A DNA stretch of 30,484 nucleotides from NCBI GenBank assembly GCA_964509585.1, contig CAZDXU010000137.1:1-30484 (forward strand). The letters are read 5' to 3'. Positions 2,844-8,894 of the stretch are shown piece by piece; within the stretch, counting starts at the first letter, position 1, and every line of letters starts with the position of its first letter. The DNA comes from an uncultured Actinomycetota bacterium (GTDB lineage Bacteria > Actinomycetota > Humimicrobiia > Humimicrobiales > Humimicrobiaceae). Position numbers and translations under genes: made by a program. Under the pieces are notes generated by a model, which had not been told where the DNA came from, did not search any database, and saw only the letters and a program-made list of their open reading frames with translations.

Positions 2844-3896
2844 ATGAAGAAAATACCATTGACAAAAAGGATTATCAAAAGGTCTGCCAGGGACCTGAAA
2901 AAGCTCTTTTACGGGTCTTTGCCGCCTGAGACTGCCTATTACCTGAGAAAGAAGATATACGGCGCCATATTGAGAAGATACTCATGCCAGGAGGACCTTC
3001 CCATAGAAGAATTAAAAAATATCCATATCATCATGGGCCTAGCCTGCAATTATAGATGCAGGATGTGCTACCAGACAGACTTCAGCAAGAAGCTGGATCC
3101 GGATATTTATCTTAACAGCTTAAAGGGCATATATCAAAATATAGAAGAGATAATAATCCAGGGAGGCGAACCGACCATTATGGCTGGCGCCAGGGAGCTT
3201 ATCGGATTCCTTACTTCAAGATACGAAAATATGAAGATCAGCACTTTCACCAACGGGTATCTTTTTGACGGATGGTGGAGAGAGACGTTTGCAAAAAATG
3301 GAGGCTTTGTAAATTTTTCCATAAATGCAGCCGGAAGGGAAAAATATTCAGAGATCAACGGAAAGGACAACTGGGACCAGGCAGTTTATAACCTGCAGCG
3401 GCTGATAAACATAAGGAACAGTTCCGGGAGCGGGCTGGAGATAAGGTCAAGTTTTGTGATCCTGGAAGAAAACCTGGGGGAGCTGTATGATTTTGTCTGT
3501 TTCTTTCATAAACTGGGAGTAGACAGGATAAGCTTTTTTTATGATATGAACCTTTTTCCTTCAAATACCGGGGAAGCCCGCTGCCAGATCGACAGCATAA
3601 ACAGGTACAGAAAGGAAAATACAGGATTAGCCATCGAAGGCCTGGATAGTTTTGGGAACTGGATCTTCAATAGAAGGCAGGGACCGCCGCTGCAATGCAA
3701 GTATCCATTCAACAGTATATTCATAGATGAATCAGGAAATGTCTATTTCTGCTGTCTCATCAGCAAATCCATAGGCAATCTTAATTATGAACGCATAGAG
3801 GCATTATGGAATAATATACTGGCAAAAAATATCAGGGCCCGTTTTAAAAATGGAGATTACAGGTACTGCGGGCATTACTGCATACCGCATGACTAA
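2844..3896 (+). CDS. Radical SAM protein with C-terminal SPASM/twitch domain
   Basis: CxxxCxxC in ACNYRCRMCY, QGGEP, FTNG. C-terminal CKYPFNSIFIDESGNVYFCC...IGNL...CGHYC. Confidence 0.9.
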   Translation: MKKIPLTKRIIKRSARDLKKLFYGSLPPETAYYLRKKIYGAILRRYSCQEDLPIEELKNIHIIMGLACNYRCRMCYQTDFSKKLDPDIYLNSLKGIYQNIEEIIIQGGEPTIMAGARELIGFLTSRYENMKISTFTNGYLFDGWWRETFAKNGGFVNFSINAAGREKYSEINGKDNWDQAVYNLQRLINIRNSSGSGLEIRSSFVILEENLGELYDFVCFFHKLGVDRISFFYDMNLFPSNTGEARCQIDSINRYRKENTGLAIEGLDSFGNWIFNRRQGPPLQCKYPFNSIFIDESGNVYFCCLISKSIGNLNYERIEALWNNILAKNIRARFKNGDYRYCGHYCIPHD

Positions 3897-3897
3897 A

Positions 3898-5076
3898 ATG
3901 AAAATACTTTGGTTTCCCAGATTAATATCAGGGATCGACGACCTGCACATGACTACATGGAAAGAGATGAGCGCAGAGCTCATCAAGAAAGGCCATAAGG
4001 TAAAAATAGCCCTGGCCGGGTATGATGATGCCTGCAATATTGAGAACCGGGTCCACATAAGGATAATCAACAGGAAGATACTCAGGATGATAAGCTTCTG
4101 GATATCAGGCTATCTGAGATTTATGATAGATATCTTCAGGTTCAGGCCGGATGCAGTGATCCTTGATATATATACGGTATGGTTTGCTGGGGCATTACCG
4201 GTGTTTTTGAGAAATACTATCTTCATACTCGATAACCGGACGCCCATAGTCCACAATTCAGAGAAGCTTTCTTATGCAGGATATTATATATTCAGGGATC
4301 ATGTGCTTGAGAAATACAGCATCCTTGCGCACCGCTATTCAGGTCTTATGATGGACGGTATAACTGCTATTACCGGCTACTACAGGGATTATCTTATAAA
4401 AAGGTTCAGGTATGACCGGGACAGGGTCTCTGTGTTCAGTTCCGGAGTCAACCAGGATAAGTTCAGGGCCATGGATGGAGATAGGGCAAGACCCGCATAT
4501 CTTAAGGGAAGATTTGTCTTTATCCATCATGGGGAGATATCATTCAACCGGGGTATTATTGAGACGGCCGCTGCGCTGGAAAGTATAGATAATGAAGAGA
4601 TAACGCTGCTCCTTCTGGGGAAGGGGCCGGCTGATAGCCATATAAAAGATATGATAAGGGATAAGAAGCTTGAAAACAGGGTGTTACTGCTGCCGCCGGT
4701 CCCATATGAAGATGTCCCCGGGATAATCAGCTATTGTGACTGTGCAGTTATGGCATACCCGCCTACAGATTACTGGAATAAGAACAATCCCATAAAACTG
4801 CTGGAATACCTGGCATCGGGCAAGCCGGTCATATGCACTGATTTCCGGACTTTCAGGGATGTTGCCGGGGATAAAAAATGTATAAAATATATAAAGGATA
4901 ATAGCCCCTTAAGCATAAGGGATGCCATGATCTATCTTTATAAAAACAGGAAGCTGCTGGGTGAATGGGGCAAAGAAGGGATAAAAGTGGTTTCAAAAAA
5001 TTTTACCTGGGAAAGGCAAGCCGGGGATCTTGTTGGTTTTATATTGAAACTTAAGCAGGGAAAGAAGAAGAGATGA
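3898..5076 (+). CDS. GT4 family glycosyltransferase
   Basis: Start revised to ATG 3898 (MKILWFP), 1 nt after the upstream stop; 3889 is an alternative. HHGEISFNRG and PIKLLEYLASGKPVICTD are GT4 C-terminal motifs. Confidence 0.88.
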   Translation: MKILWFPRLISGIDDLHMTTWKEMSAELIKKGHKVKIALAGYDDACNIENRVHIRIINRKILRMISFWISGYLRFMIDIFRFRPDAVILDIYTVWFAGALPVFLRNTIFILDNRTPIVHNSEKLSYAGYYIFRDHVLEKYSILAHRYSGLMMDGITAITGYYRDYLIKRFRYDRDRVSVFSSGVNQDKFRAMDGDRARPAYLKGRFVFIHHGEISFNRGIIETAAALESIDNEEITLLLLGKGPADSHIKDMIRDKKLENRVLLLPPVPYEDVPGIISYCDCAVMAYPPTDYWNKNNPIKLLEYLASGKPVICTDFRTFRDVAGDKKCIKYIKDNSPLSIRDAMIYLYKNRKLLGEWGKEGIKVVSKNFTWERQAGDLVGFILKLKQGKKKR

Positions 5077-5530
5077 GAACCATAAAGATAGTAGTAATAC
5101 ATCCATTCGATCCCTGGGGCATAAAAATCGGAGGAGCTGAAGTATTTATAAAAGAATTTGTAAAAAATTCCCCTGATAATTTTGAGATAGAATTCATAGG
5201 CGTTTCTTCAGATCCCGCCGAAAGGCCGGTTGGAAGACGGAAAGCCGGATATCTGGGAGGGAGAAAAATATCCTTCTACCCGGTTTTATATGTCCGTGAC
5301 GAGAATATAAAGACAAGGATACCCCTGTCGCTAATATTTACCATCGTTCTGTTTTTCTCAAGGGTCGACTATGGAAATAAGGTGATTTTCTTTAACAGGA
5401 TAGAACCGGCAATATTATTTAAAAGACACAGGGGATTAAAGATCCTGATGGTGCACAATGATGTCCAGGAACAGATATACAAGAAAAAAGGGGAAGTCAT
5501 CTGGAACAGGATACCATGGTTATACAGAAT
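5073..5530 (+). pseudogene. 5' fragment of a GT4 glycosyltransferase interrupted by the mobile element
   Basis: GT4-type N-terminus MRTIKIVVIHPFDPWGIKIGGAE. ATGA overlap with the upstream stop. The frame runs into element DNA and stops at 5544-5546. Confidence 0.85.
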
Positions 5531-5543
5531 TGAACTAAACCGC
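5529..5543. repeat. Left terminal arm ATTGAACTAAACCGC
   Basis: Its reverse complement GCGGTTTAGTTCAAT matches 8078-8092 at 12/15. 5528-5538 is the exact reverse complement of 7791-7801. Confidence 0.8.
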
Positions 5544-5644
5544 TAACGCGGTAGTTTTATCTTTCCTAAATCTTAAACCAAATGAATTTTTCAACTCCCC
5601 AGGCAATCCACATATTACTCTCATAAGAATATCTAAGATACTTT

Positions 5645-5672
5645 TTAACTAAAACTTAAAAGACATTACAAT
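5645..5672 (+). promoter_or_regulatory. Possible sigma70-type promoter of the recombinase-transposase pair
   Basis: TTAACT-N16-TACAAT upstream of the AGGA RBS and ATG 5726. The region is AT-rich, so a chance match is possible. Confidence 0.3.
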
Positions 5673-5725
5673 AATAGCCCACGGATACATTCAAATTGAT
5701 AAACGATTTAAAGAAAGGAAACACC

Positions 5726-6571
5726 ATGACCACTCTTCGTACAAAAATGATTGAAGACATGCAGCTTCGCAGGTTTTCTGTAAATACCCAGAGGTCCTAC
5801 CTGCAGGCAGTAACAGGACTGGCCAGACACTTCAGAAGATCTCCGGATAAGATAAGCAGGGATGAGTATAGAGACTATATACTTTTTCTAACAAACGAGC
5901 GTAAATTAAGCTATAGCACGATAAGGACGGCAACTGCCGGCATAAGCTTTTTCTACAAAGAGATACTGCATAGAAAAGATATGGCTCTTGCGATACCTAA
6001 ACGTAAGAAATCAAGACGTCTGCCGGAGGTCTTTAGCAGAAGTGAACTTGTAAGACTGTTCGGAAGCGTTAAAAATGAAAAACACAGGGCAATGCTCATG
6101 ACAGCTTACGGCTGCGGGCTGCGTGTAAGCGAGGTCATAGCTCTTAAAGTAGCTGACATCGACAGTAAAAGGATGATGGTCAAGATCTACCAGTCAAAAG
6201 GAGCAAAAGACCGTTATACTATCCTTCCCCCAATCCTACTTGCAGAGCTCCGCTCGTACTGGCTTAAATACCGGCCCCCATACTGGCTTTTTACCAGCAA
6301 TCAGACCAGGGGAAAGCTTTCCAGAAAAACTGCCCATAAGATATTTATAGAGGCCAAAGATAGGGCCGGTATTAAAAAAAATGTCACTTTCCATGGATTT
6401 CGCCATAGTTTTGCAACCCATATGCTTGAAGAGGGAGTGGATATAAGGACTATACAGATCCTTATGGGACACGCGTCAATTTCCTCCACTATGACTTACC
6501 TTCATATTGCCAGAAAAGACATAGGTCCCGCCAAAAGCCCGCTGGACCTATTGTATGCCGGGGTCCGGTAA
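5726..6571 (+). CDS. Tyrosine recombinase (phage integrase/XerD-like) with N-terminal SAM-like domain
   Basis: Catalytic residues in YGCGLRVSE (R), KGAK (K), FHGFRHSFATH (HxxR), MGH and TMTYLH (Y). Start revised to ATG 5726, which follows an AAAGGA RBS (281 aa). Confidence 0.95.
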   Translation: MTTLRTKMIEDMQLRRFSVNTQRSYLQAVTGLARHFRRSPDKISRDEYRDYILFLTNERKLSYSTIRTATAGISFFYKEILHRKDMALAIPKRKKSRRLPEVFSRSELVRLFGSVKNEKHRAMLMTAYGCGLRVSEVIALKVADIDSKRMMVKIYQSKGAKDRYTILPPILLAELRSYWLKYRPPYWLFTSNQTRGKLSRKTAHKIFIEAKDRAGIKKNVTFHGFRHSFATHMLEEGVDIRTIQILMGHASISSTMTYLHIARKDIGPAKSPLDLLYAGVR

Positions 6572-6576
6572 GCGCT

Positions 6577-7794
6577 ATGCCGGCAGCACAGGCAACCAAA
6601 GAGAAGAAAAAAGCACCCGGCCGGGATCTTTCCGATATATTTATAGAGTATGGCGGTGCCTATCACAAGACCCACCCTATGTCGTTTTGCCAGAAAAAAG
6701 TCATGCATGATGTCAAGGTGTGCAGGACATCCTACCTGGGAGGACATGTAAAGACATGCGACTTCTGCGGATATGAGCATCCGGCATATAACTCCTGCGG
6801 CAACCGCCACTGTCCCAAGTGCCAGAACATTGCCAAGTTTCGCTGGATAAAAAAACGGGAGGAAGAACTTCTGCCGGTTGATTATTTTCATAATGTGTTT
6901 ACCCTTCCTCACGGACTTAACCCACTTTCCCGGGCCAATAAAAAAGTGATATACGATATCCTTTTTAAGAGTGTATCTGAGACCCTTATACAGTTTGGCC
7001 AAAATGAACTTGGCGGCAGGCTGGGATTTCTTGCCATACTGCATACCTGGGACCAAAAACTTTGCCAGCATATACATCTTCACTGTATCATCCCGGCAGG
7101 AGCACTATCAGCTGGAAAGATAAGATGGATAAGATCTCTAGATGATAGTTTCCTCTTTTCTGTAAAAGCACTATCAAAAGTATTTAGGGGTAAGTTTCTA
7201 TGCTATCTTAAAAAAGCATATACCGGGGGCCGGCTTGTCTTTGCTGGAAAGTCTTCCGAATACGAGAGCAAAGAGGGATTTAAGACCCTAATAGACAGGC
7301 TATACAAAAAAGACTGGGTAGTATATTCGGCCAGACCTTTTGCCGGACCAGGTAAAGTCTTGGATTATCTTGGCCGCTATACACATAGGATCGCCATATC
7401 CAATGACCGCATAAAGAGTGTTACCGGCGGCATGGTCACTTTTTCCTACCGTGACCGAAAGAATGGCAACCAGAAAAAAGAGATGACTCTTTCTGCGAGT
7501 GAATTTATCAGGCGGTTTCTAACACATGTCCTTCCAGATTCCTATACCCGCATAAGGCACTATGGATTTCTTAGTAACCGCAACCGTAAAGAAAATGTAG
7601 CACGGGTAAAGGATCTTCTGGGAGTCTCTTCGGAAAATGGCACTAAAAAGAAGCAAGATGCTCGGGAGATCATGCTTGAACTCACCGGAAAGGATATATT
7701 AAGATGCCCGCAATGTAAGACTGGTACCATGGCAACCTGCCGTTTGATTACCAGGTTTTCTGTGTGGATCGACAGTCAGTTCAGCGAGCCTTAG
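6577..7794 (+). CDS. IS91-family rolling-circle (Y2 HUH) transposase
   Basis: N-terminal Cys-rich zinc domain CRTSYLGGH..CDFCG..NSCGNRHCPKCQ, HUH region HTWDQKLCQHIHLHC, YLGRY (YxxxY), IRHYGFLSN and C-terminal CPQC. Confidence 0.95.
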   Translation: MPAAQATKEKKKAPGRDLSDIFIEYGGAYHKTHPMSFCQKKVMHDVKVCRTSYLGGHVKTCDFCGYEHPAYNSCGNRHCPKCQNIAKFRWIKKREEELLPVDYFHNVFTLPHGLNPLSRANKKVIYDILFKSVSETLIQFGQNELGGRLGFLAILHTWDQKLCQHIHLHCIIPAGALSAGKIRWIRSLDDSFLFSVKALSKVFRGKFLCYLKKAYTGGRLVFAGKSSEYESKEGFKTLIDRLYKKDWVVYSARPFAGPGKVLDYLGRYTHRIAISNDRIKSVTGGMVTFSYRDRKNGNQKKEMTLSASEFIRRFLTHVLPDSYTRIRHYGFLSNRNRKENVARVKDLLGVSSENGTKKKQDAREIMLELTGKDILRCPQCKTGTMATCRLITRFSVWIDSQFSEP

Positions 7795-7801
7795 TTCAAT
7801 T
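7791..7801. repeat. Internal copy of the terminal arm (TTAGTTCAATT) overlapping the transposase stop codon
   Basis: Perfect 11-bp inverted repeat of AATTGAACTAA at 5528-5538. TAG 7792-7794 is the transposase stop. Confidence 0.7.
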
Positions 7802-8077
7802 GATACATCATGTACTATTATTTAGACAATATTAAATATTATCCTTTTACCTCTCTTTTAAAGAGCAGTGGTAGGGCTATGGCTTTTTATCCTGTTACTT
7901 CTTTTTATCTATATCATTTTTATATCAAAAAGAGATCTTTTATATGGCTTTACCGGTTTATTGATATAATCTTATGGTTTTTGTGTGCTCTGAGTCTTCT
8001 TTTTGGCGGTTCTCCTATTTTAATGATTCCAATACTTTCTACATAGAAAAAGTTCTTACTTCTTTGACTAAATATAC

Positions 8078-8137
8078 GCGGCTCAGCTCAATAATGTTTT
8101 ATCTCCAATGCTTGTGCACAAGAGATAAAACGCTAAT
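8078..8137. repeat. Right-end structure: arm + perfect 10-bp stem-loop (attC-like half site)
   Basis: GCGGCTCAGCTCAAT (8078-8092), AAT, GTTTTATCTC (8096-8105), a 16-nt loop, GAGATAAAAC (8122-8131), GCTAAT. A 12-bp palindrome CTTGTGCACAAG lies at 8111-8122. Confidence 0.8.
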
Positions 8138-8894
8138 CCTAATGGAAAGAAGCATAATGCCGGTACTTGATATTGTCTATTCATCTAATAACAGACAGGT
8201 TCATTACTACCGGGAGACCCATAAAGGAAAAAAGTTTCTTTTCATACCTTCAATGGTAGATGTGTCTATATTCTATGAAACTACTGTAAGAAAAGAATAT
8301 TTGAAGGAAGCCATATCATGCAGATATCCAGTTATACCTGGAAGATGTGTATGGTTATTATTTACCGGGAGACTGCAAAAACAGAAAGCTCCTCTTCGGC
8401 TGGTGCAAGTATTCTACCAGTATCTGAAAGAATACAATTATGACGCGGCGCTTATCATAATCGGAGATGGTGACTTGAAGAATAGGCTGAATACCATGAT
8501 AAATGAGCTTGGACTGGCCGGCAGGGTATTTATCCTCCCACCAATTAGTCAAACTGAGCTTGCCGAATTCTACAGAGCCAGTGATGTCTTTTTACTGACC
8601 AGCAATTATGAAAATATGCCCTTCAGCGTTTTGGAAGCCCAGAGCTGCGGACTTCCTGTAGTATCTACCGATGCAGGCGAAGTGCGCAATGTGGTAAGGG
8701 GAGGCCTTTCAGGTATAGTGCTCAGAGATGCAGACGACAGGCAGCTGGCTGAAGCCGTCAATAAAATCCTGGTCGATAGAGAAATTTTCAGCTCCCTGAA
8801 CTGTGTAGAGTCTGTAAGCGGATACAGGCCCGGGAATGTCTTTAAGCCAGTGTATAAGCTGATAGAAAAGCATTGCAAAAAAGATTATTCATGA
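8138..8894 (+). pseudogene. 3' fragment of the interrupted GT4 glycosyltransferase
   Basis: Contains LFTGRLQKQK and the Ex7E motif YENMPFSVLEAQSCGLPVVST. In frame with the 5073 fragment when joined at AAT. The ORF-track start at 7974 lies in element DNA. Confidence 0.85.

Follow-up and report, generated by a model that had tools for sequence, protein, structure and literature searches.

What does a tyrosine recombinase contribute to a mobile element that already encodes a rolling-circle transposase? The question is raised by a 30,484-nt stretch of DNA from an uncultured Actinomycetota bacterium (contig CAZDXU010000137.1 of assembly GCA_964509585.1, positions 1 to 30,484; the whole stretch is called the window below), in which a 2610-bp element carrying both genes interrupts a glycosyltransferase gene. 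That IS91 elements can carry a recombinase gene is on record, as is the kinship of these recombinases with integron integrases (bioRxiv 10.1101/542381). The literature searched records no role for the recombinase, and it gave no account of these ends and no mechanistic description. Here, we find that the two ends of the element, once joined, form a bulged hairpin resembling the attC site of integron cassettes, that the parts of this hairpin are conserved in relatives from several phyla, and that their pairing favors the bottom strand. We put the probability that the recombinase acts on the folded bottom-strand joint of a rolling-circle product at about one half. The features on which the argument draws are the following.

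5530..8139, + strand: whole element, with genes for a recombinase and an IS91-family transposase; 2610 bp, limits taken from homology with relatives, an assembly unitig and repair of the GT4 frame
5530..5543, + strand: left arm, TTGAAC (R'-like) followed by TAAACCGC; complementary to the right arm and containing the GAAC of the terIS-like module
5539..5552, + strand: left-end local palindrome ACCGC-TAAC-GCGGT, terIS-like; compensatory variants in relatives, rival of the arm pairing
5726..6571, + strand: predicted tyrosine recombinase of 281 aa, resembling integron integrases but lacking the IntI insertion; Phage_integrase and SAM_4 matches
6577..7794, + strand: predicted IS91-family HUH-Y2 transposase, 405 aa; Zn_Tnp_IS91 and Y2_Tnp matches (PF14319 and PF04986), NF033538 at 430 bits against a cutoff of 125
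8078..8092, + strand: right subterminal arm GCGGCTCAGCTCAAT, with R''-like GCTCAAT; 12/15 match to the left end, three C.A mismatches
8096..8131, + strand: inner hairpin, an oriIS-like palindrome; perfect 10-bp stem (8096-8105/8122-8131) and 16-nt loop
8132..8139, + strand: right tail GCTAATCC, a variant of the CYTAT-type tail of the family (the IS91 oriIS motif); aligns with the tails of relatives
5073..5529, + strand: interrupted GT4 glycosyltransferase gene, 5' part; open reading frame (ORF, 5073-5546) in frame with 8140-8894
8140..8894, + strand: interrupted GT4 gene, 3' part; ORF 7974-8894, Glycos_transf_1, starting TAATGG (like the target N|TTA)

Boundaries and genes of the element

The preliminary description of this locus, made from the window alone, had placed the element at 5528-8137 with a shared and conserved AAT at the crossover. 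The ends of relatives and a unitig from the likely source run, X1, move the limits by 2 nt, to 5529|5530 and 8139|8140, and make NTT the shared core. Homology with relatives begins at TTGAAC and ends after GCTAATCC; the layout is N|TTGAAC ... GCTAATCC|T, and the joint reads ...GCTAATCC|TTGAAC.... In run X1, the element is a separate unitig (5530-8140) of depth 31 with flanks at 7.6-8.4, and a further flank in the run matches the L048-type site exactly, base 5529 differing among copies. An element depth about four times that of the flanks, together with the second flank, implies identical copies at at least two insertion sites in this run. DNA and end-pattern searches of the window's own genome, a metagenome-assembled genome that is 88% complete, returned no further copy, giving one in total.

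The two sides of an insertion have only NTT in common, and the first of these bases is often unlike between the sides. The evidence on where this variable base belongs is split: the X1 unitig and the lineage of the window and L048 assign it to the right end, while the L014/L036 lineage assigns it to the left. A close GT4 orthologue that could represent the empty site was not found in 40 related genomes (best 36-38% identity), and the exact pre-insertion sequence is therefore ambiguous within NTT. None of the claims draws on G032, an unpublished genome listed in that comparison. Removal of the 2610 bp fuses the GT4 halves into a 407-aa frame.

Both genes look active, judging from their sequence. 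The recombinase ORF spans 5696-6571, with an ATG at 5726, and the catalytic residues R133, H223, R226, H249, and Y258 are there. The transposase retains its HIHLH motif (165-169), YLGRY (264-268, with Y264 and Y268) and the CxxC pairs; the predicted N-terminal zinc-binding domain, HUH motif and two tyrosines (Y2) place it in the IS91 family. Domains, profile scores and catalytic motifs thus bear out the unit of recombinase and HUH-Y2 transposase that had been proposed.

The joined ends of the window copy

The sequences quoted in the preliminary description are all present, with arms at 8078-8092 and 5529-5543 and a stem at 8096-8105/8122-8131. As it had stated, the arms match at 12/15 positions with three mismatches, each of them C.A when read on the top strand, and the inner stem is a perfect 10 bp. 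With the corrected joint, its asymmetric 3/4-nt bubble becomes a 5' spacer of 3 nt and a 3' spacer of 8 nt. Folded as single-stranded DNA (ssDNA), the joint as first drawn reaches -14.2 kcal/mol on the top strand (z -4.8) and -16.7 kcal/mol on the bottom (z -6.3), neither value being reached by any of 200 shuffles; the bottom strand does fold better. The corrected joint folds at -11.9 on the top and -15.8 on the bottom. Of 20000 shuffles, 42 (0.2%) gave a 12/15 inverse match to the left end among the final 140 nt. When the competing left-end hairpin is included, the minimum-energy fold of the window copy loses the arm pairing.

CCGC in the left arm can pair with GCGG of the local ter palindrome (5539-5552) or with GCGG of the right arm (8078-8082), and the two folds are mutually exclusive; they could serve as a switch between the integrated and circular states. 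A candidate third arm over the tnpA stop codon (7786-7800, 12/15) was rejected, being altered in L046 and L048, which are 97-98% identical, and absent in relatives at 70%. That match is probably fortuitous and was judged to lie outside the system.

Conservation of the hairpin and its strand bias

We compiled 124 related loci from public genomes and metagenomes, with transposase (TnpA) identities from 98% down to ~36%, in Actinomycetota, Planctomycetota, Bacteroidota, Bacillota, Spirochaetota, and Pseudomonadota. Structure was compared in 37 curated elements spanning 36-98% TnpA identity and several phyla, and these have a common layout. The left end reads N|TTGAAC-TAA, next to which lies a palindrome of 5-7 bp whose variants compensate each other, and the left arm is kept down to 40% TnpA identity. 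The arm at the right end, 14-15 nt long, is complementary to the terminus on the left; it is followed, after 0-6 nt (mode 1-3), by a hairpin of 6-23 bp and then by a tail of 6-10 nt (mode 7-8) with a CYTA(T) motif. The window tail GCTAATCC aligns with tails such as TTCTATTCA and CCCTATCCG. The inner hairpin varies in sequence by lineage, is present in nearly all relatives, and beats all 200 shuffles in 18/36.

The preliminary description had proposed looking for covariation of the arms in other copies, and it is found: arms lie at the same positions in the 37 relatives and carry compensatory changes. Examples are ...GAACGAAACC.../...GGTTTCGTTC..., G/C at position 7, TTGTACC/GGTACAA, and TTGGAC/GTCCAA. 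The mismatches that remain are unequal between strands. In 30 distinct arm pairs, 27 mismatches are C.A or A.C on the top strand, which is G.T on the bottom, against 2 that are G.T on the top; 24 are of other kinds. The binomial probability of 27 versus 2 is 8e-7 at p 0.5, and 4e-4 at p 9/14, which allows for arm composition; both values overstate the significance because the arm pairs are related, though the events fall at six positions and in many lineages. The joined ends are more stable on the bottom strand in 32/36 elements, by a median of 2.95 kcal/mol, as is the inner part alone in 27/36, and the bottom-strand preference first described for the window copy thus generalizes to the family. 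Arm pairing is retained against the local left palindrome in 32/37 and lost in the lineage of the window and L048. Taken together, these data give good support to selection for a joint that folds on the bottom strand.

Joined ends also exist as contiguous DNA, always as tail-N|TTG..., in five contigs (L080, L095, L108, L109, and L118). A 98-nt terminal overlap makes L080 circular or tandem, and L095 holds two element variants head to tail. In Pseudobacteroides cellulosolvens (G041, ~857-873 kb, L138-L150), a full related copy is followed by about ten fragments in the same orientation within 16 kb, which points to recurrent insertion, head to tail, and to decay at a single place.

Integron-like features of the joint and the recombinase

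In most relatives, the joint carries R boxes of the integron type: R'' and R' are GTTCAAC and G|TTGAAC, the integron consensus RYYYAAC/GTTRRRY with its boundary at G|TT. The window copy has GCTCAAT and (C)|TTGAAC, each 6/7 to the consensus. With T and C at the crossover, the G-C pair is missing from this copy; its subfamily has T and A there. The boundary of the family is at the inner edge of the R box, beside the bulge, and IntI cuts attC at the inner edge of the R box beside the bulge.

The recombinase gene, int, immediately precedes tnpA in 112 of the 121 relatives with enough sequence. The best match of its product in the PDB is 2a3v (VchIntIA, IntI4), with E 7e-35 in two stretches. The alignment breaks at query 177-201 against IntI4 179-245, so that about 40 residues of the IntI-specific insertion are missing. 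TIGR02249, the integron integrase profile, gives 194 bits, under its cutoff of 265 and in a tie with XerA at 194. Lacking the extra helical insertion specific to IntI and scoring below the family cutoff, the protein would not be classed as an IntI itself. IS91-borne recombinases have been classed in an integron-like subgroup without the IntI insertion (bioRxiv 10.1101/542381).

One relative resides in integrons. A 1462-bp IS91-like element without int (L129:1838-3299; 35% TnpA identity) is found on plasmid pE044_IMP6 and on 10 other IncN or other plasmids, where it fills, from G|TT to G|TT, precisely the place of a cassette between aadA2 and qacEdelta1 in IMP-6 class 1 integrons, its limits being the G|TT of attC(aadA2) on one side and the 3'-CS on the other. 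Its R''/R' are GTTCAAC/GTTGAAC, with 9-10-bp arms and an ori-type hairpin. ISUnCu1, considered as another IS91-type integron insert, was rejected, since it belongs to the IS110 family. On the R-box consensus, the kinship with VchIntIA and this integron-borne relative, the parallel with integrons is closer than the preliminary description saw.

Target site

The logo of 29 independent sites is N|TTAT(S), with T at +1 in 26, T at +2 in 26, and A at +3 in 24. A weaker ATA at -10..-8 gives an inverted ATAA-N6-TTAT layout. A hairpin or attC as the target was considered and rejected: the flanks are complementary only in L004/L066 (11/12), and not in the window or at 27 other sites. L004 (68% TnpA identity to the window's) and L072 (45%) have homologous left flanks (...AACACTCTACATA(T)AAT...; L004:1-53), and in L004 the insertion point is enclosed by flanks that pair as an 11-bp stem, which may be a repeated hairpin target.

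IS91-type modules at the ends

IS91 (1829 bp) and IS1294 (1688 bp) were recovered from plasmids for comparison. Their left ends consist of CGAG/GAAC, 3 nt and a palindrome, and their right ends read ...TTCCTATCGAT (IS91) and ...TTCCTATACGT (IS1294), the same modules as in the recombinase-bearing family. The window left end, TT-GAAC-TAA-ACCGC TAAC GCGGT, parallels GAAC-CAC-GGCAGCC TGGC GGCTGC of IS1294. Compared module by module, the terIS-like and oriIS-like ends of the window element appear to be those of an IS91-family member. Arm pairing was not found in the joined ends of IS91 or IS1294.

A proposed model for recombination on the folded joint

We propose that the HUH-Y2 transposase would nick the bottom strand at both ends of the element, ori-like on the right and ter-like on the left, and that a single-stranded bottom-strand circle would be released, as in IS91. 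The joint of this circle would fold: the ori hairpin would form the distal stem, and the left 14 nt would pair with the subterminal arm on the right. The proximal duplex of the bulged hairpin would then be an integron-type R box (GTTCAAC/GTTGAAC mostly; GCTCAAT/TTGAAC here). The integron-integrase-like recombinase would bind the folded site and carry out strand exchange between its bottom strand, at AA|C (N|TT on the top), and a short target of the form (ATAA)-N6-N|TTAT, and replication would finish the insertion, as in recombination of attC with attI or with secondary sites. The linkage of int and tnpA, the R-box consensus, the lack of arms in int-less IS91 and IS1294, and the int-less relative in integrons favor the recombinase as the enzyme at the joint.

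Several points weigh against this proposal. Because the ends are homologous to terIS and oriIS, cleavage by the transposase very probably falls on these same element boundaries or no more than 1-3 nt from them. The conserved motifs CAA(C/T) at ter and TAA(C/T) beside the ori end are as expected in IS91, where the tetranucleotide of the target is similar to that of ter, and the arms could instead help TnpA to close the circle, as a self-splint. The functional intermediate of IS91 is a bottom-strand circle, and TnpA alone inserts it (PMC13181058). The ori/ter homology, this precedent and the plausible splint role favor the transposase. In addition, the hairpin has a 7-8-nt bulge in place of extrahelical bases of the attC type, and the recombinase lacks the IntI insertion that reads such bases. 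Covariation of inverted repeats is, by itself, also expected for duplex sites bound by one protein, and the lineage of the window has the weakest arms. The preliminary description had suggested a read search for the circle junction; neither this junction nor an element-skipping contig (an empty site) appears in the contigs of four runs of the source sample, a weak objection, since unitigs drop rare forms.

The alternative that survives best is ordinary IS91 chemistry, in which the HUH-Y2 enzyme alone excises a bottom-strand circle and inserts it 3' of TAA(C/T). The inner hairpin and left palindrome would be ori and ter, and the arms a panhandle or splint for accurate termination, setting the ter 3' end beside the ori 5' end. 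The recombinase would be an accessory for termination fidelity or regulation, like Orf121, whose gene has the same position upstream of tnpA in IS91 and which tunes terIS cleavage (PMC13181058). The homologous modules, insertion by TnpA alone and the likeness of target and ter motifs (TAAY/CAAY) are all in keeping with it, and a bottom-strand bias is expected of any bottom-strand intermediate. Tandem copies occur in IS91 itself as well: an E. coli plasmid (NZ_CP122728.1, L126) carries two IS91 head to tail, the ori end abutting the CGAG ter tetranucleotide of the next copy, and tandem arrays thus arise in classical IS91 too. However, such chemistry offers no reason for a catalytically intact integron-like recombinase conserved across phyla. 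It leaves unexplained both the exact integron R-box consensus at the joint and the lack of arms in int-less IS91 and IS1294, when the one int-less element with arms sits in an integron, and a weak left half-site at -10..-8 is unexpected for a tetranucleotide target. We hold this alternative tentatively, as a serious possibility.

A further possibility, though an unlikely one, is that the substrate of the recombinase is a double-stranded or cruciform joint. The enzyme would then resolve tandem multimers or cointegrates that arise by rolling-circle read-through, or would integrate and excise a double-stranded circle, while the transposase only replicates. Xer-like enzymes resolve multimers, and head-to-tail tandems are frequent in the family (L095, L105, and L108). 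However, the arms are 45-120 bp apart in the duplex, far over a 6-8-bp core spacer, and would therefore make a recombinase site only after folding. The 27:2 wobble asymmetry indicates one single strand, and the tandems persist although the recombinase is intact.

That the arm complementarity is a chance inverted repeat without function is very improbable: the window arms match at only 12/15, the minimum-energy fold prefers local hairpins and a second 12/15 match lies at 7786, but the idea is contradicted by the family data, with the same arm positions and compensatory changes in 37 relatives, and by a chance of 0.2% for the window match.

If the recombinase does act on the folded joint, tyrosine recombination on folded ssDNA, as in integrons and in CTX-type phages, would have a third natural case. 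The model would also tie IS91/ISCR elements to integrons, two major routes by which genes move; it could explain the relatives in integron arrays and bears on the origin of attC sites and cassette circles. A bolder idea, which we consider improbable, would make the IS91 branch with recombinases a surviving relative of the system ancestral to integron cassettes. The HUH enzyme would make the single-stranded circle, the ori/ter joint would be a proto-attC and the recombinase a proto-IntI, and attC sites and cassette circles would descend from, or still be fed by, such elements.

The interrupted locus

The neighborhood of the element is a glycosyltransferase gene cluster, with a GT4 gene at 3850-5076 besides the interrupted one. 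The insertion would inactivate a surface-glycan glycosyltransferase and has probably altered the surface glycan; exact excision would restore the gene.

Comparison with known systems

With the IS91 family, the element shares a transposase with zinc finger, HUH and Y2 motifs, the lack of target duplication, and an accessory gene upstream of tnpA. The left GAAC, 3 nt and palindrome, the right palindrome with its CYTAT tail, and a short conserved target beside the ori end are also common to both, and the bottom-strand bias agrees with the bottom-strand circle of IS91. It differs in its accessory gene, here an integron-like recombinase, and in its target, N|TTA versus GTTC/CTTG. IS91 and IS1294 are without the 14-15-nt arm that precedes the ori hairpin here and is complementary to the left terminus. 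ISShvi3 and ISWz1 are presumably two-ORF IS91 members with a tyrosine-recombinase gene upstream of tnpA. Both have been named as IS91-family elements (PMC9229058, PMC11322121).

Integron cassettes share with it a circle whose two ends form a bulged hairpin, the favored bottom strand, and a boundary at G|TT beside the central bulge. The recombinase is closest to VchIntIA, insertion occurs at GTT-type sites resembling secondary sites, and one relative occupies a cassette slot. Unlike attC, in which extrahelical bases of the L''/L' box set the choice of strand, the family has no conserved single bases of this kind and has instead a one-sided bulge of 7-8 nt, the inner stem being perfect in the window copy. 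The element also differs from cassettes in its outer stem of 14-15 bp, its own recombinase and HUH enzyme, and its location in a GT4 gene rather than in an array with intI, attI and Pc.

The SEs are likewise tyrosine-recombinase elements that give strand-biased circles; they are described as much larger, with several recombinases and without an HUH transposase. In CTX-type filamentous phages, an HUH rolling-circle protein makes ssDNA, and XerCD exchanges one strand on a folded hairpin. The logic would be the same here, with a single strand from an HUH enzyme, a tyrosine recombinase on a folded site and replication to resolve the product. However, the phage uses host Xer at dif, whereas the recombinase here is encoded by the element itself, an insertion sequence with a loose choice of target.

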